From positions 1-48,939 of the forward strand of contig CAMBEX010000001.1 of NCBI GenBank assembly GCA_945865865.1: DNA of 48,939 nucleotides, written 5' to 3'. The translations under genes and the position numbers were made by a program. The notes below the pieces were generated by a model. It made no database searches. It saw only the letters and a program-made list of their open reading frames with translations, and was not told the origin of the DNA. Source of the DNA: Bdellovibrio sp. ZAP7 (GTDB lineage Bacteria; Bdellovibrionota; UBA1018). Positions 3,269 to 15,161 of the stretch are shown here, in pieces; the first letter of the stretch is position 1; every line of letters begins with the position of its first letter.

Positions 3269-3667
3269 ATGGAAAAGCAGACTCAACAAAACGGTAAAAG
3301 AAAAAGCGCGATTGCTCGGGTGTACATCCGTCAGCGCGCCACTGAAACGGGCGTGATTCGGATCAACGGGCGCTCATTCGAAGACTACTTTCCTCGTCCG
3401 ACCGCACGCATGTTGATCATGCAGCCTCTCGAGCTGACTTCCACCGTAGGACGTTTTGACATCGTCATCAACGTCAAGGGTGGCGGTAACTCTGGGCAGG
3501 CAGGCGCTGTTCGTCACGGCATCTCTCGTAACTTGATCAAGATCGACCCTTCGTTTCGTCCGGTCCTCAAGAAGGCTGGCTTCTTGACCCGCGACTCCCG
3601 CGAAGTTGAACGTAAAAAGTACGGCTTGGCTGGCGCTCGGCGCCGCTTCCAGTACTCGAAGCGTTAA
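3269..3667 (+). CDS. rpsI: 30S ribosomal protein S9 (uS9)
   Basis: [12 protein letters not shown]..., [19 protein letters not shown] and the C-terminal [25 protein letters not shown] are uS9 signatures. Confidence 0.95.
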
Positions 3668-3693
3668 TCGAGTTTTCTGGTTTCAAAATCAAA

Positions 3694-3738
3694 GGCCTGG
3701 GGAAGCGATTCCCTGGGCCTTTTTTTATATTTTTTTTG
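3694..3738 (+). terminator. Rho-independent terminator after rpsI (possibly bidirectional)
   Basis: GGCCTGGGG (3694-3702) pairs with CCCTGGGCC (3711-3719): 9 bp including two G-U pairs, with an 8-nt loop. It is followed by TTTTTTTATATTTTTTTT. An A-rich tract precedes it, so it could also act on the minus strand. Confidence 0.7.
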
Positions 3739-3774
3739 GAAAAGAGAGGCAGGCGTCCCGGTGGACCGCTTGCC
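3739..3774 (-). terminator. Rho-independent terminator ending the five-gene signalling operon
   Basis: Read on the minus strand, GGCAAGCG (3774-3767) pairs with CGCCTGCC (3755-3748): 8 bp including one G-U pair, with an 11-nt loop. It is followed by UCUCUUUUCC and starts 10 nt after the TAA of the REC-PilZ gene. Confidence 0.6.
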
Positions 3775-3783
3775 TGTTCCGTC

Positions 3784-4527
3784 TTAGTTGGAGTCGGGGA
3801 TGTAGGCTTTGGTCGTGAGCGCGTTAATCCGTTCAATCATCTCGGCTCGACATTTGTCTGAGAGGCTGAAAATCTCGACGCCGATTCCATCAGGCAGGGT
3901 AGTCATCTGATGACCAGAATTCGCCTTAGGTTGGCGACGAATCCATCTCACGACTCCGGTTCCTGAAATTTCCATTTGGCCTCGGACCTCAGTGATCAAA
4001 AAGTTTACTGTTTGTCCCACAGACGGTAATGGCGCTTGAGGTTTGAGCTCAGTGATTGGGAGAAAAAATCCACCCCTGCCGAGAGACAGCAAGCTTCCTG
4101 AAATATGCGCGCAAAGGTTCGTTGATGGAGCTGGCGCCTCGGGTCGGCACTTCCAGCGTTCCTCCATGGGCGAGAGGCATCGATGGATCAGCTCCACGAG
4201 CTGGGCTCTTTTGAACGGCTTTGAAAGGAGGCCGTCTGCGCCCTTTGCATAAAGTTCCTGAATTGAAAATTGCTCAAGTCCCGTCATGAAAAGGAATGGC
4301 TGCAAGCCCGGATCTCTCGCCCTCACCCAGTCCAGCAGATAGACTCCAGGCAATCCCGGCATTCGGATATCCGAGACGATCAAGTCGATAGTTCGACTAC
4401 TCAGAGCGTCAACGGCTTCGGTCACATTCTTTACAAAGATGATCTGATGTCCAAGCTGGCTCAACCTGGGCAAAAGCGCCTCTCGAATGTCCTGCTCGTC
4501 GTCCACAAGGAGAATGGTGGCGCTCAC
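3784..4527 (-). CDS. response regulator: receiver (REC) domain + C-terminal PilZ-like domain
   Basis: REC: ILLVDDEQD..., DLIVSDIRMPGLPG, FLFMTG, LSKPF. The C-terminus has PilZ topology: RWKCR (RxxxR), then LSLGRGGFFL, ...GTGVVRWI..., DGIGVEIFSL. GTG start in a GTGA overlap with the upstream ORF. Confidence 0.8.
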   Translation of the reverse strand: MSATILLVDDEQDIREALLPRLSQLGHQIIFVKNVTEAVDALSSRTIDLIVSDIRMPGLPGVYLLDWVRARDPGLQPFLFMTGLEQFSIQELYAKGADGLLSKPFKRAQLVELIHRCLSPMEERWKCRPEAPAPSTNLCAHISGSLLSLGRGGFFLPITELKPQAPLPSVGQTVNFLITEVRGQMEISGTGVVRWIRRQPKANSGHQMTTLPDGIGVEIFSLSDKCRAEMIERINALTTKAYIPDSN

Positions 4528-4742
4528 AGTTTTGCTCCCAGGGTGTTTCGACGGTCTTCCAAAATTTTCTGAACGGCCTCGAGTGCGCGCATGATTTGTT
4601 CAAGCGCTGGAAGATCCGGACCGGTTTGGCCGTCCGTTTCGTTCTTTTTTTGAATCAAATCCTCCAAGGTAAAAATCGCGGCGGCTAGTGGGCTAGCAAT
4701 CGCATGAAGTGTGTCTCGTTCCTCGCCCAATTGAACGCTCAT
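4524..4742 (-). CDS. 72-aa stand-alone DHp-like (histidine-kinase H-box helical hairpin) protein; function unknown
   Basis: LHAIASPLAAAI (His13) aligns with the H-box of the adjacent kinase (AHEINNPLTVI). A Gly/Pro loop and a second helix (LPALEQIMRALEAVQKILEDRR) follow, and there is no ATPase domain. The ATGA overlap with the kinase stop and the GTGA overlap with the next start argue that it is translated. Confidence 0.55.
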   Translation of the reverse strand: MSVQLGEERDTLHAIASPLAAAIFTLEDLIQKKNETDGQTGPDLPALEQIMRALEAVQKILEDRRNTLGAKL

Positions 4743-6340
4743 TCGGTGACCACCCCGCGGGTTGGAAGGGTAATCACAAAACGCGTGTTCGGCGCTTGAA
4801 GGTCCACGGCCAAGTCACCACGGTGAGCGGTGATGATCCCCTTAGAAACGCTCAGGCCCAATCCGGTTCCCTTGCCGACTTCCTTGGTGGTGAAAAACGG
4901 AATAAAAAGTTTCTGAAGGACAGTAGGGTCGGTAATTCTTCCGCTATCGCTGACGGTGAGCTGAATGACACTTCCCGCATCGATTAGTTTGACCTCAACC
5001 CAAGAGTTGGGTGAGTCGATTACGGCATCAAAGGCATTGTTCAGTAAATTGAGCAGCACCTGCTCGATTTGAATTTCGTCTCCCTGAATCGAGCTCGCGC
5101 TCTCAGGCACAATGATCCGTAACGGGATGCCGTGCTTTTTGAATCTTTCGTTGCAGAGGGCGAGCGTGTTTTGAATCACTTTGCTCAGGTCTACCGATGC
5201 AAAGGGGGCATCGCTTCCGTCCCGTGAAAAATCACGCAGTCCCCGCACGATCTTGGCGATTCGGTCAGAAGTAGCCTCAATTCGATGAGCGAGTTTTCCG
5301 GCATAGGCATGATCAAACTGTTGTTCAGCTACGAGGTCCTGAAGTTCTTCAGAGGTGGCAGAAATCACAGTGAGCGGGTTGTTGATTTCGTGTGCGATTC
5401 CGGCAGCCATCTCTCCGAGTGAGGCAAGTTTTGAACTAGCGAACATTCGTTGCTGTTGGTCGGCGATGGTCTGGGTCCTCTCTTGCACTCGGGTTTCCAA
5501 GGATTCGTTGAGGCGGCGAAGCGTCTCGGCGGACCTCCTGAGGCGCACGAGCGCAAAAATCGTAGCCGCACCAAAAACGAGCGCCAACAAGAAAAGTGCG
5601 GAACTAAAGGCATTGGATCTCTCCTGATCCTTGCGATGCTGAGTGGAGTAGGCGGCAAAGAGTGAGTCAGCATGGTGAGAGGTCGGAAGTGCCAACAGTT
5701 CAGAAACGAGCTCATCCAATAGAGTTTTCTGTGTAGCAATGAGCTTGGCATGTTTCAAAAAGCCCTCTGTGCCTTTCGAAAGGGACCTCGAATTGGATAG
5801 AAAATTTATGAGGGATAAAATTTGTTCTTTGAGGTCTTGGCTTGCGCTGGCGTTGTAAATAAAAAGTTTGTGAGTCAGTGTTTCAGCCCGGTTACGCAGG
5901 GATAATTGTCCCGGGCGAAAGTCGGCGTCGCTGAGTGCGCTGGGCAGGTAATTGAGCGAGTTCTTGAGCACGGAGTTGTTGGACTTGAACTCTTCGATCA
6001 ACTCGATTTTTCGGCTAAAAACCGACTCAAAGAGCTTGAGTTCGGGGGTTTCGTTTGCGGGACCTTTCTTGATTTCCGTGACGGTGTCCTGAATGGATTC
6101 TGCGGCCTGTACGATCGAATCGTAGTTGGGGTGGGAGCGTAGTCGCGCTTCAAGTACCTGGCTGGTCAGCACCGCATCGAGTTCCTTGAGGGTTTTGAGC
6201 GTGGACGCAGTATGCGTGTACTCCCCGAGGTCGCGGAGGTGGGCTTTGTATAAGAGTCCTGCGCAAACAATCAGCAGGAGCATTCCCCAAGCAAAGTGAG
6301 GGACTTTCAGTTTCGGTTTGAGCAGAGTATTTAGATTCAC
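4739..6340 (-). CDS. membrane sensor histidine kinase (HisKA + HATPase_c) with an all-helical periplasmic sensor domain
   Basis: TM1 FAWGMLLLIVCAGLL, a predicted helical extracytoplasmic region of about 200 aa, then TM2 ALFLLALVFGAATIFALV. H-box AAGIAHEINNPLTVI, N-box LLNLLNNAFDA, G-boxes VSDSGRI and GTGLGLSVSKGII. GTG start in a GTGA overlap with the upstream gene. Confidence 0.9.
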   Translation of the reverse strand: MNLNTLLKPKLKVPHFAWGMLLLIVCAGLLYKAHLRDLGEYTHTASTLKTLKELDAVLTSQVLEARLRSHPNYDSIVQAAESIQDTVTEIKKGPANETPELKLFESVFSRKIELIEEFKSNNSVLKNSLNYLPSALSDADFRPGQLSLRNRAETLTHKLFIYNASASQDLKEQILSLINFLSNSRSLSKGTEGFLKHAKLIATQKTLLDELVSELLALPTSHHADSLFAAYSTQHRKDQERSNAFSSALFLLALVFGAATIFALVRLRRSAETLRRLNESLETRVQERTQTIADQQQRMFASSKLASLGEMAAGIAHEINNPLTVISATSEELQDLVAEQQFDHAYAGKLAHRIEATSDRIAKIVRGLRDFSRDGSDAPFASVDLSKVIQNTLALCNERFKKHGIPLRIIVPESASSIQGDEIQIEQVLLNLLNNAFDAVIDSPNSWVEVKLIDAGSVIQLTVSDSGRITDPTVLQKLFIPFFTTKEVGKGTGLGLSVSKGIITAHRGDLAVDLQAPNTRFVITLPTRGVVTE

Positions 6341-7311
6341 CTCGCGTTCCCCTCTGGAGTCTTTCCAGTGAGTGAGCGCAGGAACCTCGAAATCAGTTCG
6401 ATGTCTTTCGCCGAGAGGTCTCGTCCTAGCTGGTACTTGCCCATGATCTTCACGGCATCTTCAATCGTGGAGGCGGATCCGTCGTGAAAATAGGGAGCAG
6501 TCAGCGCTACATTGCGGAGGCTTGGTACTTTAAACCGATGCTTGTCGCTCTCCTTCTGGGTGACGTTGAACCGGCCAAGGTCCCCTCGGGTGAGCTTTTT
6601 TCGGTCGGAGAAAATATTGCCCATGACCCCAAAAACCTGAAACATATTTCCGCCGATGTTTCTACCCTGGTGGCAGGCGATGCAGCCATAGTCCTTGAAC
6701 CGGCGGTAGCCTTCTCTCTCTTGACCGTCCAGTGCGTGAGTTTCGCCTCTGAGAAATCGATCGAATTTTGAGTCGGGAGTCGCCAAGCTCCGCTCGAAAG
6801 TGACAATGGCATTGCGAATGTTATTTTCGTTGGGCTGACTTGAATAAACTTTTTTAAACTCAGCTAGGTAGGCTGGGTCCTGCTGAAGTTTTTGAATGAT
6901 CTGCACCCAAGTCGATGCCATTTCGTTTTCACCATGAAGAGGGCCGTCGAGTTGCTCCTCCAGAGACTCAGCCCTGCCGTCCCAGAACTGCTTGAAATTG
7001 AGAGCACTATTGAAAACCGAAGGAGTATTGAGTTCGTTCTTTCGACCATGAATACCGATCGCCAGGGATTTTCCGTCAGCCCCGCCCCTTTTGAAATCGT
7101 GACAACTGGCGCACGAAATCGAGTTATTGGCAGAGAGAATCGGGTCATTGAAGAGTCGTCGTCCAAGCGACACCTTTGTCGGATTGAGATCTGTTGGGAT
7201 TACGATCGGCTCGATGGGTTCGCTCGTAATGCCGGTCGCGGGACTGAGAAAGAGATGCGCCACGAGGATCATGGCAAGTCGCATGTTGTTGCGCCTCACT
7301 CTCGCCCTCAC
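6337..7311 (-). CDS. secreted di-haem cytochrome c peroxidase / MauG-family protein
   Basis: Signal-peptide-like N-terminus (MRLAMILVAHLFLSPATG). Two CxxCH haem motifs (CASCHD and CIACHQG). CCP-family blocks NTPSVFN, FWDGRA, FKVPSLRNV, APYFHDGS. The GTG at 7311 overlaps the upstream stop; the ATG at 7284 is an alternative start. Confidence 0.88.
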   Translation of the reverse strand: MRARVRRNNMRLAMILVAHLFLSPATGITSEPIEPIVIPTDLNPTKVSLGRRLFNDPILSANNSISCASCHDFKRGGADGKSLAIGIHGRKNELNTPSVFNSALNFKQFWDGRAESLEEQLDGPLHGENEMASTWVQIIQKLQQDPAYLAEFKKVYSSQPNENNIRNAIVTFERSLATPDSKFDRFLRGETHALDGQEREGYRRFKDYGCIACHQGRNIGGNMFQVFGVMGNIFSDRKKLTRGDLGRFNVTQKESDKHRFKVPSLRNVALTAPYFHDGSASTIEDAVKIMGKYQLGRDLSAKDIELISRFLRSLTGKTPEGNAR

Positions 7312-8720
7312 GTTGCACCTGCTTTTCGTCTTAGGGTGTTGAAAAGCTCCAGATTAGAGGGGTAGCGAAAAAGAGAGATCAGGGCCTTCATGCAGTCGTG
7401 ATCAAAGCGCTCGACACCGATGGAGAGTATTCTATTGATCGCGTTTTCTGCTGTCATGGGCGGCCCAGAGGACGTTTGCATGGCGAGTTTGCAGAACTCG
7501 TTGGCAAGACATACGACCCGCGACATGGGGTGGATTTTATCCTTTCGAAGTCGGGATGGAAAACCAGAGCCGTTTTGATTTTCGTGGTGCTGGTGCACGA
7601 TCTGGAGAATGTCGGTGGGGATGCTAGAAATCTGAGCCAGGATCTCAGTGCCACGGCCCGTGTGGCTTTCGTACAGGATGACCTCTTCAATGGTCAATTC
7701 AGAGCGTGCTTTTTTAAGAATCGAAGGCGAAATTTCTTTTTTTCCGATGTCGTGAAAAAGCGCGCCGGCAGCCACTTTGAAAAGGTTTTGTGGGTTTTTC
7801 CAATGGAGTGCTCTTGCGATGAAAGCGGAGTAAAAACTCACGGCCACGGAGTGAGCGTAGAGTGGCTCTGAGTGTGACGCTAATGCGGTAAGAAGGTGAA
7901 GGAGTTCGGGTTCGTCACTGAGTGCTGAAAGTGTCGATTCAACGATCGTACAGGTGTTGCGATATAAGTTTTCGTCGAACTCGCTTTGGTAAAGCGCTCT
8001 GAGCACGGACTCAGATGCAACCTTCAAAAACTGAATTTTTCGATCGCGAGTGATGAGCGCGTTCGAGGTGAGTGCTTGAGCAACCGAGATATTGAAGCCG
8101 ATGTATTTCCGGTAGTCTTCCTGGGTGAGGTAGAGAAAAAACAGGCCTTTTTCGCGATAGGAGCGAATGCGCTCGATGGAGATGTCCTCGCCTCCGTGTG
8201 CGACTCTCAGATATTTTTCGGCTGACAGTCGGACATGAATGTCGTAGCGGATCTGGCTTCCGGAGACGAAGTCATCGATTGGAATTCCGCAGTAGAGGCT
8301 ATCCAGATGAGCGGGCTTTGCTTTGGGTTCCAGCCCAGAAAAGCAAGCCGAGAGGGCTTCTAGAATCGCCTCTGCCTTGAACGGCTTTGGCAAAAATGCC
8401 TTCGCGCCCAGGTTGTAAGCTTCTTGAGTTTCAAGAAGGTCTGCAAAGCCCGTGATCAAAATCACCGGCATGGGGCGAGTTTCATTGATCCACTTCAGGA
8501 GCTGAAGGCCGTTGAGTTCGGGCATCTGAATGTCTGAGATTACGGCTGAGTACACTGAGAGCGCGATGAGTTGCTGGGCGTGTTTTGCGTTTTCTGCGCA
8601 TTCCACTTTGTAACCATGGCTCTCGAGACAGCGGCTGAGCGCAAGCCTGAAGTAATAGTCGTCATCCACTAATAGAATTTGGCGCTTGGGCGATGGATCA
8701 GTGTTTTGGGTCGAAGTCAC
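7308..8720 (-). CDS. response regulator: REC + HD-GYP-type domain (putative c-di-GMP phosphodiesterase)
   Basis: REC: ILLVDDDYYF, AVISDIQMPELNG, ILITG, LPKPF. HD-GYP: ALFHDIGK and HQHHENQNGSGFP (GYP appears as GFP). GTG start at 8720 preceded by GGAGAA with a 9-nt spacer. Confidence 0.88.
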   Translation of the reverse strand: MTSTQNTDPSPKRQILLVDDDYYFRLALSRCLESHGYKVECAENAKHAQQLIALSVYSAVISDIQMPELNGLQLLKWINETRPMPVILITGFADLLETQEAYNLGAKAFLPKPFKAEAILEALSACFSGLEPKAKPAHLDSLYCGIPIDDFVSGSQIRYDIHVRLSAEKYLRVAHGGEDISIERIRSYREKGLFFLYLTQEDYRKYIGFNISVAQALTSNALITRDRKIQFLKVASESVLRALYQSEFDENLYRNTCTIVESTLSALSDEPELLHLLTALASHSEPLYAHSVAVSFYSAFIARALHWKNPQNLFKVAAGALFHDIGKKEISPSILKKARSELTIEEVILYESHTGRGTEILAQISSIPTDILQIVHQHHENQNGSGFPSRLRKDKIHPMSRVVCLANEFCKLAMQTSSGPPMTAENAINRILSIGVERFDHDCMKALISLFRYPSNLELFNTLRRKAGAT

Positions 8721-8732
8721 AGCGAGCGATTC

Positions 8733-8762
8733 TCCGAAAAGTTTTCTTAATTACTTTTCGGA
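8733..8762 (-). promoter_or_regulatory. perfect 10-bp inverted repeat (TCCGAAAAGT-N10-ACTTTTCGGA) overlapping the Shine-Dalgarno of the REC-HD-GYP gene
   Basis: Arms at 8733-8742 and 8753-8762 are exact reverse complements. On the mRNA strand the 3' arm ...ACUUUUCGGA runs into the GGAGAA SD. It could be an operator or an RBS-occluding hairpin. Confidence 0.5.
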
Positions 8763-8805
8763 CTGCCCGGGCCGTTGCTAAAGGGGAAGTCGTTAAAACC
8801 ACAGG

Positions 8806-8849
8806 AAAAAATGCGGCACAGCGCGGCGCTCCGATCGGCCTATGCCGCA
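8806..8849 (-). terminator. Rho-independent terminator of the upstream hypothetical gene
   Basis: TGCGGCA (8849-8843 on the minus strand, including the last codons and stop) pairs with TGCCGCA (8818-8812). This is a 7-bp perfect stem with a 24-nt partly self-pairing loop, followed by AUUUUUU. Confidence 0.5.
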
Positions 8850-9433
8850 CGGGCAATCGGCTTGGCCTCGGCCTCGTAAGCCAGGGCGACACACTCCAAA
8901 ACCCGTCCGTACTCGTGCGCGGCTTTGATGCGCTCAGCTCTCAGGAGCTCGTGTTTGTAAGCGGGTTCCGCGAGTTTCTCTAAATGTTTGCGACCGCGGT
9001 TCAAATACAACTTCATTTCAGGGGGCATCTCGCTCATTCCCGGCGGACAGTGGCGTGCACAGGACTCGAGAAGGTCAGCGGTCGTGTCCTCGCGTTCACG
9101 CAAGCTGTACTCATCGAGGGCGCCCTCAAGGTAAGGGAGCTCGCTTGAGCGTGGCTCCAGGTAAGCAATCTTGGCTTCATGCCAAAAGGCGCGCGCCAAG
9201 TGTTTGGCGGTGCGCGCCCATCTCTCTGCAGCCAGTCGGTCGCCGCTTCGAAGGGCATTAAAACCACGCTTGTAGATCGTGAAGACCTCGTCGGAATGAA
9301 CGCCGGCAATCGAATGACGGTCCCAAAAGTGAGTCACTCCGACCTCGATGGCGCAGTTATATGCTTTTTTGAGTTCGTGCTCCGCGTTTTCGGGGCCATG
9401 AGTGTGAGACTCGGGAGTTCGTAATCGTGTCAT
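8840..9433 (-). CDS. hypothetical all-helical protein (no family recognised)
   Basis: Long ORF with its own terminator and no signal peptide or TM segment. The ATG at 9433 (MTRLRTPES...) is preferred over the TTG at 9454. No motif I can assign. Confidence 0.55.
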   Translation of the reverse strand: MTRLRTPESHTHGPENAEHELKKAYNCAIEVGVTHFWDRHSIAGVHSDEVFTIYKRGFNALRSGDRLAAERWARTAKHLARAFWHEAKIAYLEPRSSELPYLEGALDEYSLREREDTTADLLESCARHCPPGMSEMPPEMKLYLNRGRKHLEKLAEPAYKHELLRAERIKAAHEYGRVLECVALAYEAEAKPIARAA

Positions 9434-9481
9434 GCGAGCAGGTGGTGCAATCAAAGTACCAGAGTGCGATAATCAGCAGGA

Positions 9482-10774
9482 ATGGTTTGGACTACCTACA
9501 AAGAGAAAATCAAGCGGCTGTCGCAGCGGATCGTCGATGCGCAGAAACCCATCCGTATTCTCGATGCGATTAAGTGGGATCCATCCGTGGAGCAGGCACT
9601 CCGAAAATCCAAGTTCAAGCTGATGCCCAAGGTGGGTCCTGAGTATTATCAGAAAATTCCATTGGGCTACGATCCGGCTGGGAAGATCGAGGAGTTCGAA
9701 GGAATTATTGCAGACACACGAGCCTCGCTTGGGGCAGAGGACGAAGTCGGAAAGCTCCTCTGCAAGGTTGCGCTGCAATATGCTGACGTGATCGAGATGA
9801 TCCGTCATCGCGGCACCAAGAAGTTTTGGGAATTCAGCAAAAAACTCTACGGTTCACCGAAAGACACTTTTTACGACTCGAAAAATACGGTGTCGCAGCT
9901 AGGTCAGCTTCTCTACTCAATCTTGAATGGCCTGGATAGCGCGACCATGGGGCAGGAGTATCCCAGAAACATCGAGGCAGCCCAGGCTGTTGAGATTTTG
10001 AATGGACGGCTCAAGACCTATTTCAAAGATGAAAAAGACCGCGCCAAAATTTCGGACGGAATTCTTGCGGACGCCGCGGCAGGCGGCGACGCAGTCAAGG
10101 TACGAGAAGGTTCACTGTTTTCGGCGCGGGATGTGGACATCCTCGAAGTGCATGAGGGCTGGGTCCATATCGCGACGACTTTGAATGGTAACCAACAACA
10201 TGTGGCCAAGTGGCTCTCCAAGGGGCCACCGAGATGCTCCAGTACCCAAGAGGGTTTGGCCGTGATCATGGAGATCTTCACGTTTCGCTCGTATCCGAGA
10301 CGAGCCCGTCAGATAAATGACAGAATTCTGGGGATTGATAAGGCTGAGGACGGCGCGAACTTCCTGGACCTCTTAGAGTTTTATCGAACAGAGGGCTATT
10401 CGGAGGACGAAAGCCTCGCCAACGCCAAGCGGGTATTTCGCGGAGGCATGGTCGAAGGGGGAGCGCCTTTTACGAAGGACATCTCGTACTGCCGCGGTTT
10501 TGTCGAAAATTACAATTTCATGCGAACCGCTATTCGATCCGGCAAGCCTGAGTTGATTCCGTTTCTATTTCTTGGCAAACTTCATGTAGACGACATTCCG
10601 CTGCTTTATCAGAAATATAAGGAAGGAATCGTGGACGCTCCGGTTCATCTTCCTCCGCAGTTCACGGATCTGAACGGGGTGGCGGTTTGGATGAGTTTTT
10701 CGAGCTTCTTGAACCAGGTCGATCTTCGAAAGGTTCAAGAGCATTACGACAAGTTATTTAAACAGTTTTTGTGA
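9482..10774 (+). CDS. DUF1704 / QEGLA-motif protein (MATCAP-like putative metallocarboxypeptidase)
   Basis: Contains the family-defining STQEGLAV motif and an upstream HEGWVH (HExxxH-like) motif. Length of about 430 aa is typical of the flavohemoglobin expression-modulating QEGLA motif protein family. Confidence 0.75.
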   Translation: MVWTTYKEKIKRLSQRIVDAQKPIRILDAIKWDPSVEQALRKSKFKLMPKVGPEYYQKIPLGYDPAGKIEEFEGIIADTRASLGAEDEVGKLLCKVALQYADVIEMIRHRGTKKFWEFSKKLYGSPKDTFYDSKNTVSQLGQLLYSILNGLDSATMGQEYPRNIEAAQAVEILNGRLKTYFKDEKDRAKISDGILADAAAGGDAVKVREGSLFSARDVDILEVHEGWVHIATTLNGNQQHVAKWLSKGPPRCSSTQEGLAVIMEIFTFRSYPRRARQINDRILGIDKAEDGANFLDLLEFYRTEGYSEDESLANAKRVFRGGMVEGGAPFTKDISYCRGFVENYNFMRTAIRSGKPELIPFLFLGKLHVDDIPLLYQKYKEGIVDAPVHLPPQFTDLNGVAVWMSFSSFLNQVDLRKVQEHYDKLFKQFL

Positions 10775-11653: not shown

Positions 11654-13135
11654 TCAGCTGTAATCCCGCGCGGTAATCCCGTATTTTTCGAGCTTTCTGA
11701 GCAGCGTTTTCTTGGGAATGTTTGCGTGCAGAGCAGTTTGGTTGATGCGGCCTTTGAACGTCTTCAACGCGCTGATTAGAAACTGTCGCTCGAACTCCTC
11801 TTTGTTGGCCTGAAAGTCCAACTTGCTGATGTCGAGCTTGAACCCGCGTCCCAGGCTGGCGTCCGTCGGGACTGCTCCAGGCGACAGGCAGATCATCGCC
11901 TCGGGAGCCTCGTGGTCCGTGTATTCCGAGAGATTGGACGTGTCATTTTTGGCTGGCGTGAGCAAGCGGCCTCGGAGCACTGACTCAGGAAGACTCGGTA
12001 TCGTGAGCTGATTTCCTGACTCGATTACAAACGCGTGTTCGATCACGTTTTCGAGCTCCCGGATATTTCCAGGCCATGAGTGGTTCTTGAGTGCCTCCAT
12101 CGCGTCTGCCGCAAGTGCCGTGATGCTTTTTCTGTGCTGCTGATTGAACTTCTCGATGAAGTACTTTGCCAGCACCTCGATGTCGTTCTTACGCTCACGG
12201 AGGGGCGGAAGCTGAATCGGCAATACATTGAGGCGGTAAAAAAGGTCCTCGCGAAACTCGCCCTTACGGATCATGTCTTCGAGGTTTCGATTGGTCGCCG
12301 CGACGATGCGGACATTGACCTCGATCTCGCGGTTGGCACCGACCGGGGTAAAGCGTTTTTCCTGCAGAACGCGTAGAAGTTTGACCTGCATTCCGGCTGA
12401 AACGTCGCCGATCTCGTCCAAGAACAGGGTGCCGCCGTCGGCATACTGAAACTTTCCGATCTTGCGGCTGTCGGCTCCAGTAAATGCGCCTTTTTCGTGT
12501 CCGAAAAATTCGCTCTCAATCAGGTTTTCAGGCACCGCTGAACAGTTGATGGTCACAAATCGATTGTCTTTGCGTGGGCTGTTGTGATGCAGCGCCTGCG
12601 CCACCAGCTCCTTGCCCGTGCCGCTTTCGCCACGGATGAGAACGGCGGTGTCCACACGCGAAAGTTTATCAATCACGCTGAAGATGCGCTTCATCTCGGA
12701 GCTCTGACCGATGAAGTCGGTACCATTAGGTAGGCGAAACACCGGAGCTGAGAGGGTGATGTTTTTGACCATGGAGTGGGCTTTGAGCGCCTTGTCCACA
12801 AGGTAAACAAGGTTTTCGGCCTTGATCGGTTTCTCAAGATAGTTGTAGGCGCCATGGCGTGTGGCCTCGACGGCGTCACGCACATTTGAAAAGGCGGTCA
12901 GTACGATCGCAATAATGGATGGATCGTGGGCTTTGATTTCCTTGAGGGCCTCGAGCCCGGACATTCGGGGCATGTTGACGTCCAGAAGTACCAGATCGTA
13001 GCGCCCAGCCCGAATGCGGTTCACACCCTCTTCGCCATCGCGAGCCTGATCCACGAGGTAGTGGCTCTCCGAGAGGGCCGAGGCTACGGCAAGACGCAAA
13101 TCCGCATCGTCATCAACAACTAGAACTTTATACAT
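11654..13135 (-). CDS. sigma-54-dependent response regulator (NtrC family: REC + AAA+ + Fis-type HTH)
   Basis: REC: VLVVDDDADL, LVLLDVNMPRMSG. AAA+: GESGTGKE (Walker A), ESEFFGHEKGAFTGA (GAFTGA sigma-54 contact loop), LFLDEIG (Walker B). C-terminal HTH: NQTALHANIPKKTLLRKLEKYGI. The ATG at 13135 has a GAGGA SD and overlaps the kinase stop by 8 nt. Confidence 0.92.
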   Translation of the reverse strand: MYKVLVVDDDADLRLAVASALSESHYLVDQARDGEEGVNRIRAGRYDLVLLDVNMPRMSGLEALKEIKAHDPSIIAIVLTAFSNVRDAVEATRHGAYNYLEKPIKAENLVYLVDKALKAHSMVKNITLSAPVFRLPNGTDFIGQSSEMKRIFSVIDKLSRVDTAVLIRGESGTGKELVAQALHHNSPRKDNRFVTINCSAVPENLIESEFFGHEKGAFTGADSRKIGKFQYADGGTLFLDEIGDVSAGMQVKLLRVLQEKRFTPVGANREIEVNVRIVAATNRNLEDMIRKGEFREDLFYRLNVLPIQLPPLRERKNDIEVLAKYFIEKFNQQHRKSITALAADAMEALKNHSWPGNIRELENVIEHAFVIESGNQLTIPSLPESVLRGRLLTPAKNDTSNLSEYTDHEAPEAMICLSPGAVPTDASLGRGFKLDISKLDFQANKEEFERQFLISALKTFKGRINQTALHANIPKKTLLRKLEKYGITARDYS

Positions 13136-15161
13136 AGGTGCTTTCCTCACTGGATTTGCCCGAGTCTTCGGGCATTGAAACGGTTAAGCCGGGGCGGATC
13201 ATCGCAGCCGGAGGGAGCGTCGGTAAAATGGGGAGAAGAATTCGAAACGTACTCCCGATTCCCTGCTCGCTCTCAACTTCTACGCGACCCTGATGTGCCT
13301 CGATAAAAAACTTGGACAAATAAAGGCCAAGGCCTGTGCCGGAAGTCTGAGCGGTGGCCTGATTTTTAGCGCGATAAAAACGCTTAAAGAGGCTCTCAAT
13401 CTCATCAGGAGAGAGACCGACGCCTTGGTCGCGAACGGAAATTTGCACCCACTCGTTTTTTTCGACCGACAATATCGAAATCTCTGAGCCCGGATCAGAA
13501 TACTTGATCGCGTTGTCGATCAGGTTGTTCAAGACCTTGGTGATCATTGACACGTCTACCTTGATCGGAAATAGCGGTTCAAGGTTCATCGTGATTTTGC
13601 AGTTTTTGGCGCGCGCTTGAGCGCGAAACCCAGCGGTCGCTCTCTCGATGATGGAGTTGACGTCCTTAGACTCAAGCCTCAAGTGTATGTAGTTGGACTC
13701 CACCTTGGCGAGTTCAAGAATACTCGAGATGAATCTATTGAGCTCGTCCGTGGACTGAATGATGTGATTGAGGGTCTCTTTGTCGCGATCGACGAGTCGA
13801 TCCGCGGCCTTTTTCAAAAGCACTTCCGCTAGGCCTTGGATTCGCGCGACCGGAGTCTTGAGATCGTGCGTGACCAGCGACATAAAGTTGGTTTTAAGTT
13901 CCTCGACTTGTACGAGGAGTTTGTTTTTACGCTGGTAGTCCCAGCGTTTTTTATACTCACGGATCAGGCGGTAAGGCACCGCTAGGTAGTATCCCAGAAA
14001 TGCCCCAATCAGCGGCTGGCTCACGCGAATCCAGAGTCCGCTGTGGCCGCCAAATCCATAAAAAACCAACTGAGTGAAAGTCAGAAACAGGATAATTACG
14101 GCGACGGTGGCAAAGAGCCCATTGAGTGGGCTCAGGATCATGACGGCAGCAATCACAAATACACTCAGCAAAAATATCGCAAGGACATTGACGTAATGAG
14201 GTGTCTTGGCGACTCCGTCGTCGTTGATCAGGGAGTCCAGAATATTGGCGTGGACTGCCAGTTTTGGATTTGAAAAAGAAGCCGACGAGTAAGGAGTGAG
14301 CGCGTAGTCCTGGGAGTCGTCGCGGGTGAGCGTGCCCACCAATACGATTTTATCGCGAAGGGAGTCGATCGGCGCCGTTCCGTTCAGGACGTCAAGAAAC
14401 GAGAGACGGCGGTAGCGTTCTGAATCCGAAAGCTGCGAGGCGTGGCTCAAGGCAACGTCGCCGTGATAACGAAAATTAAAATAATTGGCGTCCACTTCAG
14501 GAACAGAAAAGCTGCCGCGAGGCAAATGCCCCTCAGAAATCAGTCCCAGTTTTCGGGCCAGTTCGAAGTGAAAAACGGATTTATCATACAGGTGGGTAAG
14601 CGCACTGCGAGTGACCTTGTCTCTCGCAAATACATTTCCATCCTTGTGAATGAGTGCAAGTGCGTGTGGCAATGCGCTCAGCGGATACGGAGGCAAGACC
14701 TCGCCCGTGACATCGAACGAGGTGCCCATAATAACTGGCGTCCCTCCTCGCTCCATCCGAATGGCGATCTCTGTGAATTTCTGTCCAGGGTGCGAACGAA
14801 ACTGCTGTGGATAGAGTTGGCTGACCCGGTTCATGTCGACGAGGTAGCCCACGCCGCGCGGGGAATACTTTTCGAGCGACTCCAGGAACCGCGCATGAAC
14901 CTCAAGCGATAGGGGTGAGAGGTCGTCGAGAGTCGCCGTAGTGGCATCGTCGAGTGTAATGAGGGTAATTCGCGAATCCGGGCGGGCCTGAGGGCCTTTG
15001 GCCATTCTAAAGTCGTAGAGACCCGCCTCAATTATGTTGAATTCAAAATTGAGCAGCAAAGCCGTGAGAATGCCTGCCCCTGCAAGAATGCTGAGCGGGG
15101 TCTTGAAGTGTCGTAGCGACAGCTTCTGCAAATTACTGAAGTTCAACTTCCAAAGGGACAT
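13128..15161 (-). CDS. CHASE2-domain sensor histidine kinase
   Basis: N-terminal TM, then a CHASE2-like extracytoplasmic region (RITLITLDDATTATLDDLSPLSLEVHARFLESL...), three TM segments, HisKA (SLVTHDLKTPVARI) and HATPase_c (NLIDNAIKYS, VRDQGVGL, GTGLGLYLSK). The start is placed at ATG 15161 because the GTG at 15194 lies inside a sigma-54 promoter core. Confidence 0.85.
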   Translation of the reverse strand: MSLWKLNFSNLQKLSLRHFKTPLSILAGAGILTALLLNFEFNIIEAGLYDFRMAKGPQARPDSRITLITLDDATTATLDDLSPLSLEVHARFLESLEKYSPRGVGYLVDMNRVSQLYPQQFRSHPGQKFTEIAIRMERGGTPVIMGTSFDVTGEVLPPYPLSALPHALALIHKDGNVFARDKVTRSALTHLYDKSVFHFELARKLGLISEGHLPRGSFSVPEVDANYFNFRYHGDVALSHASQLSDSERYRRLSFLDVLNGTAPIDSLRDKIVLVGTLTRDDSQDYALTPYSSASFSNPKLAVHANILDSLINDDGVAKTPHYVNVLAIFLLSVFVIAAVMILSPLNGLFATVAVIILFLTFTQLVFYGFGGHSGLWIRVSQPLIGAFLGYYLAVPYRLIREYKKRWDYQRKNKLLVQVEELKTNFMSLVTHDLKTPVARIQGLAEVLLKKAADRLVDRDKETLNHIIQSTDELNRFISSILELAKVESNYIHLRLESKDVNSIIERATAGFRAQARAKNCKITMNLEPLFPIKVDVSMITKVLNNLIDNAIKYSDPGSEISILSVEKNEWVQISVRDQGVGLSPDEIESLFKRFYRAKNQATAQTSGTGLGLYLSKFFIEAHQGRVEVESEQGIGSTFRILLPILPTLPPAAMIRPGLTVSMPEDSGKSSEESTYV

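Follow-up and report, generated by a model that had tools for sequence, protein, structure and literature searches.

The dimerization and histidine phosphotransfer (DHp) hairpin has so far been known from histidine kinases, from the two-domain phosphotransferases Spo0B and ChpT, and from a laboratory fragment of EnvZ. Sensor histidine kinases hold their catalytic ATP-binding (CA; HATPase_c) domain in the same polypeptide. Spo0B (Bacillus) and ChpT (Caulobacter and Brucella) are dimeric DHp-type phosphotransferases that carry the histidine on a hairpin, form a four-helix bundle by dimerization, do not autophosphorylate and shuttle phosphate between receivers, so that a DHp bundle can serve as an H2 node (PMC3433190, PMC5231405). 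Here we describe a 72-residue protein, named mini-DHp, which is encoded in 48,939 nucleotides of DNA from Bdellovibrio sp. ZAP7 (contig CAMBEX010000001.1, positions 1 to 48,939; this whole stretch is called the window). Mini-DHp is very probably a stand-alone DHp acting on receiver (REC) domains. In the reading that we favor, to which we give a probability of roughly 0.45, it works as a relay, that is, as a histidine-phosphotransfer protein without a CA domain, serving a response regulator with REC and PilZ domains (REC-PilZ).

Mini-DHp resembles the HisKA-type DHp (PF00512) in being a two-helix hairpin, with H-[DE]-x-x-[STN]-P-[LI] in helix 1 and a helix-2 arginine that aligns with an arginine of the kinases. 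However, it is not part of a kinase; sensor, linker and CA domain are missing, and the whole proteins have 63-101 residues in the 82-sequence family alignment on which all member counts below are based (41-101 residues among all homologues). Compared with the HisKA DHp, two motifs are peculiar to the family, E-R-K-F ahead of the histidine and R-R within helix 2. The dimerization and the function of Spo0B and ChpT are proposed here, by analogy, for mini-DHp also. The original prediction, which was made from the DNA sequence alone, stated that Spo0B and ChpT retain a CA-like domain, and this agrees with their C-terminal alpha/beta (Bergerat-like) domain (PMC3433190), for which mini-DHp has no room and which is absent from its model of two helices only. 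A specific sequence relation to Spo0B or ChpT was not found: Pfam SPOB_a matched four of the 82 members weakly (best E = 0.029), and neither protein was among the PDB profile matches at E ≤ 10.

Isolated domain A of EnvZ (engineered, about 67 residues) has the same size and content as mini-DHp, but it is a laboratory truncation, whereas mini-DHp is a natural gene. Domain A reportedly accepts phosphate in trans, passes it to OmpR and dephosphorylates OmpR~P; EnvZ domain B is able to phosphorylate domain A in trans. The nearest natural precedent known to us for a histidine-domain protein separated from its CA domain is the split kinase Rv0600c/Rv0601c of M. tuberculosis, for which PMC3544749 gives only two sensor kinases with one regulator. 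HPt domains (PF01627; ArcB-HPt, Ypd1, ShpA) are likewise small histidine-phosphotransfer modules between two receivers. However, they are monomeric four-helix bundles with H-x-x-K-G and are not DHp homologues, whereas the mini-DHp model has two helices and the histidine stands in F-L-H-D-I-A; Pfam Hpt was absent from the window protein and from the 25 Pfam families listed for the members. Spo0E-family phosphatases and Sda-type anti-kinases are similar-sized helical hairpins acting on two-component proteins. Spo0E has an S-Q-E-L-D motif, Sda has no H-box, and neither has a conserved phosphorylatable histidine. The S-Q-E-L-D motif was absent from the mini-DHp family consensus, and no family of the Spo0E or Sda type was among the same 25 Pfam families. 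Mini-DHp is homologous to HisKA, and it is neither a kinase, a Spo0B/ChpT-type protein nor an HPt domain.

The mini-DHp gene

The gene and its main sites are located as follows.

4524..4742, minus strand: mini-DHp gene, 72 residues (open reading frame, gene-caller support, homologues, hhalign, AlphaFold2)
4686..4721, minus strand: H-box codons E8-L19, EERDTLHAIASPL (family conservation and hhalign to kinase)
4704..4706, minus strand: His13 codon
4548..4553, minus strand: Arg64-Arg65 motif, close to the end of helix 2

The product, initiated at ATG, is MSVQLGEERDTLHAIASPLAAAIFTLEDLIQKKNETDGQTGPDLPALEQIMRALEAVQKILEDRRNTLGAKL, and the stop codon occupies 4524-4526. The mini-DHp open reading frame is a genuine gene, because gene callers predicted it on contigs retrieved from ENA and Logan and because about 90 homologues of similar size were found. 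The sequence is in NCBI too, and the identical protein is encoded on contigs of three separate samples/runs. Going by how the closest homologues of the kinase are named, the DNA comes from a metagenome-assembled genome of the Bdellovibrionota. The window protein had no Pfam or NCBIfam match, and no HisKA match even at E ≤ 1; its single sub-threshold Pfam match was DUF4164 (E = 0.041). HATPase_c was also without a Pfam match in the 72 residues, as expected from the predicted lack of a CA domain.

The mini-DHp family and its conserved residues

A word-indexed homology search with mini-DHp alone recovered only mini-DHp itself (one sequence cluster, no close relatives). When 1.84 billion representatives were searched exhaustively with phmmer, eight more small proteins of 68-82 residues emerged (E values of 5e-6 to 7e-4); two further matches, P0129 (765 residues) and P0131 (764 residues), were spurious, being long repetitive proteins. 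The profile built from the nine sequences found 91 proteins of 41-101 residues. These homologues were mostly unnamed or "hypothetical"; in JGI, four carry the label "signal transduction histidine kinase", and a further homologue is labeled Ribonuclease G/E. Wherever the source organism was named, it was throughout the family Bdellovibrionota, Oligoflexia, Oligoflexus or Pseudobdellovibrionaceae. A metagenome scan with the family alignment confirmed 5 loci only. Neither Pfam nor NCBIfam has a model dedicated to the family, and full-text literature searches on stand-alone, isolated or orphan DHp proteins and on Bdellovibrio REC-PilZ modules turned up no account of it. Mini-DHp is an undescribed family, so far known, from the members with a named source, only from Bdellovibrio-like bacteria.

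The family signature was [DE]-E-R-K-F-L-H-D-x-[AS]-[SNGT]-P-[LI] ... R-R-x-x-L, with the following counts (positions of the window protein; H is His13).

Position 7 (H-6): D or E, 65/82
Position 8 (H-5): E, 81/82
Position 9 (H-4): R, 80/82
Position 10 (H-3): K, 69/82
Position 11 (H-2): F, 80/82
Position 12 (H-1): L, 81/82
Position 13: H, 82/82 (invariant)
Position 14 (H+1): D, 79/82
Position 17 (H+4): S 47, N 20, G 10, T 5, together 82/82
Position 18 (H+5): P, 70/82
H+6: L or I, 74/82
Position 64: R, 82/82 (invariant)
Position 65: R, 81/82
Position 68: L, 68/82

Conservation of His13 among homologues had been named in the original prediction as a check on its reading, and the residue proved invariant.

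Identity as a HisKA-type DHp hairpin

The family profile was compared by hhalign with the DHp segment of 13 DAHL kinases. The two aligned over 54 ungapped columns with 93.7 % probability (E = 1.9e-7). L12-H13 fell on the A-H(317) of the kinases, so that His13 stood on the phospho-acceptor histidine; P18 fell on the H-box proline, and R65 on the near-invariant arginine of kinase helix 2 (GLR-x-F). The true score was 38.8, whereas 100 column shuffles gave a mean of 10.3 (standard deviation 2.1, maximum 15.8) and the reversed alignment gave 11.0. This profile-profile comparison identified mini-DHp as a HisKA-type DHp and confirmed that the helix 1 motif aligns with the H-box of the neighboring kinase, as had been proposed; overall identity to the DHp of that adjacent kinase was about 22 %.

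Pfam HisKA was found at E ≤ 1 in 43 of the 82 members (best 1.1e-5; the window protein was not among them) and HisKA_3 in three, and the NCBIfam models matched most often by members were those of histidine kinases. Conversely, the family hidden Markov model (HMM) matched the DHp of unrelated kinases in the fetched loci, beginning exactly at the H-box histidine, and in one such kinase the match spanned to the end of helix 2.

AlphaFold2, run on a single chain with the 82-sequence alignment, gave a confident two-helix hairpin (helices 2-40 and 44-71; mean predicted local distance difference test score 89.9, predicted template modeling score 0.74), in line with the simple helix-loop-helix that had been predicted. 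In a by-hand tally of the 82-sequence table, about 46 % of helix positions had a hydrophobic consensus in both helices, a pattern more in keeping with a four-helix bundle than with a two-helix coil on its own. Mini-DHp may pair into a homodimeric four-helix bundle, as its homology and this hydrophobic pattern suggest. Sequence and profile searches of the PDB found nothing significant (best FliS, E = 0.022, then coiled coils, and one kinase at E = 0.79), and a Foldseek search of the PDB with the AlphaFold2 model found generic helical hairpins only (best E = 0.14), with kinases at E > 1. These searches are non-discriminating because a two-helix hairpin is too simple. Conservation, fold and profile comparison together support the core of the original prediction, that of a stand-alone DHp-like hairpin with an H-box histidine and without a CA domain, as a new small component of two-component signaling.

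Phosphotransferase or receiver phosphatase

In HisKA kinases, the acid at H+1 is needed for kinase activity (ATP-dependent phosphorylation of the histidine) and not for phosphatase activity, while Thr/Asn at H+4 is required for phosphatase activity only (PMC3510030). Phosphotransfer is favored because His13 and the H+1 Asp, which belong to the chemistry of histidine phosphorylation, are nearly invariant in the family, and because H+4, the site specific to the phosphatase in HisKA, varies between S, N, G and T with 10 Gly. In the alignment H+4 appears, and on these counts is, less constrained than the residues tied to histidine phosphorylation.

The main rival is that mini-DHp is a dedicated receiver phosphatase, whose dimer would dock REC-PilZ~P or another receiver and speed hydrolysis of the aspartyl-phosphate; the phosphatase mode of a bifunctional HisKA kinase would here have become separate from the kinase. 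We consider this unlikely, although several observations speak for it. Translation of the gene is tightly linked to that of REC-PilZ, the presumed target. Phosphatase genes also stand next to their targets in gene pairs of the cheY-cheZ type, which the mini-DHp/REC-PilZ pair resembles. H+4 is Ser, Asn or Thr in 72/82 members, at a site that HisKA phosphatase activity requires, and the window copy lacks the H+1 acid, which that activity can spare (PMC3510030). The same alignment can be turned against a phosphatase: H+4 is Gly in 10/82 members and the canonical Thr/Asn in just 25/82, and conservation is much stronger at His13 and at the H+1 Asp. The neighboring kinase, moreover, already has the phosphatase motif H-E-x-x-N. 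As for an isolated DHp acting as a phosphatase, the support is mixed: the isolated domain A of EnvZ, as cited in PMC8971529, was first reported to dephosphorylate OmpR~P, but a DHp-only EnvZ fragment re-tested in mammalian cells had no apparent phosphatase activity (PMC8971529).

Genomic neighborhood of mini-DHp

Mini-DHp is the fourth gene of an operon, the other parts of which are listed here in order of transcription.

7308..8720, minus strand: REC-HD-GYP response regulator, 470 residues, at the head of the operon and the module's second receiver (Pfam Response_reg 4e-25, HD_5 5.6e-24)
6337..7311, minus strand: di-heme cytochrome c peroxidase-like protein, CCP_MauG (Pfam CCP_MauG 2.7e-57)
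4739..6340, minus strand: sensor histidine kinase DAHL-HisKA-HATPase_c, 533 residues (Pfam DAHL 1.5e-38, HisKA 3.8e-12, HATPase_c 7.9e-19)
3784..4527, minus strand: REC-PilZ response regulator, 247 residues (Pfam Response_reg 7.7e-20, PilZ 0.081, weak)
3691..3722, no strand assigned: near-perfect hairpin with a 14-bp stem and A and T runs at its flanks (consensus scan)

The five genes, in the order REC-HD-GYP, di-heme peroxidase-like protein, kinase, mini-DHp and REC-PilZ, form one tightly coupled operon (3784..8720), in which the last four junctions are overlaps of 4 nucleotides or nearly so. The kinase stop and the mini-DHp start share ATGA (plus-strand tcat at 4739-4742), and the mini-DHp stop and the GTG start of REC-PilZ share GTGA (plus-strand tcac at 4524-4527); a Shine-Dalgarno-like GGGAG lies within the mini-DHp gene, 7 nucleotides ahead of the REC-PilZ start. 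The coupling to both neighbors that had been proposed is borne out by these two 4-nucleotide overlaps, and junctions and gene callers support translation.

Neighborhoods were compared in 16 distinct loci carrying mini-DHp. Mini-DHp was directly upstream of an orthologous REC-PilZ gene in seven of them (the window, L084, L088, L093, L097, L100 and L089, where the arrangement is the same but the contig stops short of the PilZ region), and orthology of the REC-PilZ proteins was established by alignment and HMM. The two genes overlapped by 4-14 nucleotides in the window, L084, L088, L093 and L100, and were separated by a 6-nucleotide gap in L097. Overall, a REC protein adjoined mini-DHp in 11/16 loci, and a fragment of an HD-GYP gene did so in two more (L087, L098). 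A REC-HD-GYP gene or HD-GYP fragment was the neighbor in L087, L090, L093, L098 and L100; in L092 mini-DHp was flanked by two OmpR-type regulators, and a receiver-only protein was the neighbor in L094 as well as in L095 and the copies nearly identical to it. A kinase was directly upstream in three loci (the window, L089, L090), and the kinases near family members differed in sensor type, with DAHL, MASE6 or PilJ-GAF domains that are unrelated. What the family conserves as a partner is a receiver, above all REC-PilZ, rather than a particular kinase, because adjacency to REC or REC-PilZ recurs while a kinase is directly upstream in 3/16 loci only. Its members therefore probably transfer phosphate, or take it away, in the REC-PilZ pathway. 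The position "wedged" between a kinase and a receiver, as the gene was first described, therefore held at the window locus but not family-wide, where only the receiver is constant.

A second receiver was present in all seven REC-PilZ loci with adequate flank. In L084 and L097 this was a single REC; in the other five (the window, L090, L093, L098 and L100) it was REC-HD-GYP. At the sister locus L085 there are a CCP-DAHL-kinase pair and REC-PilZ, and neither mini-DHp nor a second receiver. A scan of the genome collection with the DAHL-kinase alignment found mini-DHp in none of 80 loci; the generic H-box drew mostly unrelated kinases. Three mini-DHp copies were orphans without a two-component neighbor, two in L091 (4953..5222 and 8550..8828, 3.3 kb apart) and one in L101 (5864..6106). 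The copies in L101 and L102 adjoin DUF4423 genes.

Two further readings give the kinase the leading part, and both lose weight because the family does not consistently keep a kinase next to mini-DHp. In one, which we regard as quite improbable, mini-DHp is an auxiliary DHp loaded in trans, the output of a split kinase: the kinase CA domain would phosphorylate His13 directly, and one sensor would have two DHp outputs with different receiver specificities. EnvZ domain B acting on domain A and Rv0600c/Rv0601c are precedents, and the window, L089 and L090 have the kinase in the appropriate place. In a by-eye comparison with adjacent kinases, from which no conclusion was drawn, the helix-1 residues past the histidine differed (A-A-A-I-F-T in mini-DHp, T-V-I-S-A-T in the adjacent kinase). 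The H+1 Asp needed for ATP-dependent histidine phosphorylation (PMC3510030) is present in 79/82 members, but the window copy, which does have a kinase upstream, lacks it. In most loci the kinase is non-adjacent, with two regulators only in L092 and a receiver only in L094/L095; the three orphan copies have no two-component neighbor at all, and the sensors of the associated kinases are unrelated, while the REC-PilZ partner is orthologous.

In the other, the least probable of all the readings considered, the hairpin would heterodimerize with or bind the kinase DHp and block or tune autophosphorylation, in the manner of Sda or RetS. Sda is a small helical-hairpin anti-kinase and RetS-GacS an inhibition through a DHp-DHp heterodimer, and mini-DHp is homologous to, and translationally coupled with, the DHp-bearing kinase just upstream. 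However, across the family the linkage is to receivers, with a kinase directly upstream in only three loci, and identity to the adjacent kinase DHp is about 22 % only. The H-box weakens this reading further: an inhibitor would have no need of an invariant His, of the Asp at H+1 or of the Pro.

A 154-residue "HATPase" gene in L098 was considered as a stand-alone CA partner and rejected; it gives no support for a split kinase because it is a truncated PAS-kinase remnant holding only the G2-box end. This remnant lies at 873..1337 of L098, and at 3614..4988 the same locus has a REC gene (179 residues) followed by a separate HD-GYP gene (254 residues). In L093 (3231..4578) HisKA and HATPase are on separate open reading frames. 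The split or truncated kinase and REC-HD-GYP genes in L098 and L093 are either assembly frameshifts or decaying paralogues.

Departures of the window copy from the family

The window mini-DHp deviates from the family at K10D, F11T and D14A, each at a position kept in at least 69/82 members. Its H-box reads H-A-I-A-S-P-L, in which the acid at H+1 is missing; His13, E8, R9, L12, P18, R64 and R65 are all present. The His-Ala variant is shared with P0127, which lies in L092 between two intact regulators.

The family may be functional and the window copy have drifted, so that it would now be a scaffold or adaptor that cannot be phosphorylated, or else a gene in decay. The three departures at well-conserved sites, the lack of close relatives of the single sequence cluster, and the absence of a Pfam HisKA match at E ≤ 1 all fit such a drift. 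Nevertheless, we hold it to be very unlikely: the frame is intact with exact 4-nucleotide overlaps on either side, the seven conserved residues named above are kept, P0127 likewise has H-A while flanked by intact regulators, and the same protein was found on contigs from three separate samples/runs.

A proposed hairpin-only phosphorelay node

In the phosphotransfer reading, two hairpins would pair to give a four-helix bundle resembling the DHp of a kinase stripped of its sensor and CA domains. Receiver domains, chiefly that of the co-translated REC-PilZ, would dock on this bundle, and the phosphoryl group would be carried on the invariant His13. Mini-DHp would be unable to load itself because it has no ATP-binding domain. 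The kinase would autophosphorylate and pass the phosphoryl group to the second receiver (REC-HD-GYP in the window, a single-domain REC elsewhere), from which it would go to His13 of mini-DHp as the H2 node and then from His13 to REC-PilZ. Mini-DHp could also drain REC-PilZ~P by the reverse flow, because each His-Asp step is reversible. Altogether it would be a Spo0B/ChpT-type phosphotransferase cut down to the hairpin and wired into an output module of the cyclic di-GMP (c-di-GMP) type. Besides the conservation pattern described above, phosphotransfer is favored because a kinase, two receivers and a DHp-type histidine protein mirror KinA-Spo0F-Spo0B-Spo0A. Somewhat more tentatively still, we propose that hairpin-only histidine phosphotransferases may be, in structural terms, a third H2 class beside the monomeric HPt and the two-domain Spo0B/ChpT, linking REC-HD-GYP, a regulator of the phosphodiesterase type, with REC-PilZ, a regulator of the receptor type, in Bdellovibrionota.

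Several points weigh against this relay. Orthologues of REC-PilZ occur without mini-DHp in L085 and L005, so mini-DHp is an accessory part and not an obligatory step. The correlation with a second receiver is based on seven loci versus one, and the three orphan copies have no two-component neighbor. The kinase next to mini-DHp still has an H-E-x-x-N motif of its own and could act on both receivers without an intermediary. Because of K10D, F11T and D14A, the window copy, with Ala at H+1, Thr at H-2 and Asp at H-3, may accept phosphate less well than typical members do. Finally, Spo0B and ChpT keep a C-terminal domain, unlike the hairpin-only mini-DHp, and we know of no natural hairpin-only phosphotransferase that has been demonstrated.

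Other features of the operon and its surroundings

The REC-PilZ orthologues in L084, L085, L088, L090, L093, L097, L098 and L100 have N-L-G-[RK]-G-G in place of the canonical PilZ motif D-x-S-x-x-G. The window REC-PilZ has S-L-G-R-G-G, an 8-residue segment is missing from it, and Pfam PilZ scored E = 0.081. Binding of c-di-GMP by REC-PilZ is uncertain because of the non-canonical motif, the missing segment and the weak Pfam score.

The stop of the CCP_MauG gene overlaps the kinase start, and gene callers favor a start at 7284 (315 residues). This gene overlaps the DAHL-kinase gene by 4 nucleotides in three independent loci (window 6337..7311/4739..6340; L084 4027..6602; L085 4003..6605). The two look like a conserved pair in which a periplasmic heme protein goes with a kinase, perhaps as a co-sensor of peroxide or redox state.

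The hairpin at 3691..3722 sits between the convergent rpsI and the REC-PilZ stop, and it probably closes the operon as a terminator, likely a bidirectional one. Rfam found no RNA family across the whole window. Just upstream of the operon there is an open reading frame of 204 residues without a Pfam match (8840..9454, minus strand), next to a divergent gene of the MATCAP family (9482..10774, plus strand). A second two-component pair, in which the gene of a CHASE2 histidine kinase overlaps that of a sigma-54-activator response regulator, is found at about 11654..14742 on the minus strand (converted from the L001 gene calls).

Significance

The mini-DHp family combines an invariant histidine with a genetic lock to receiver proteins, and it extends known two-component chemistry rather than adding a new principle. 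If the proposed reading is true, a conserved natural family made of the hairpin only would mean that the four-helix bundle alone suffices as an independent signaling component. It would be a new type of phosphorelay node, one that domain-based censuses do not recognize as a separate component, and a very small tractable system for DHp-receiver specificity and for the balance of transfer versus phosphatase activity. Kinase, mini-DHp, REC-HD-GYP and REC-PilZ would then be a module conserved among predatory bacteria and their relatives, and this module may connect phosphorylation with c-di-GMP signaling; a single protein of 70-80 residues would couple the phosphorylation of a regulator that degrades c-di-GMP to that of a regulator that reads it.

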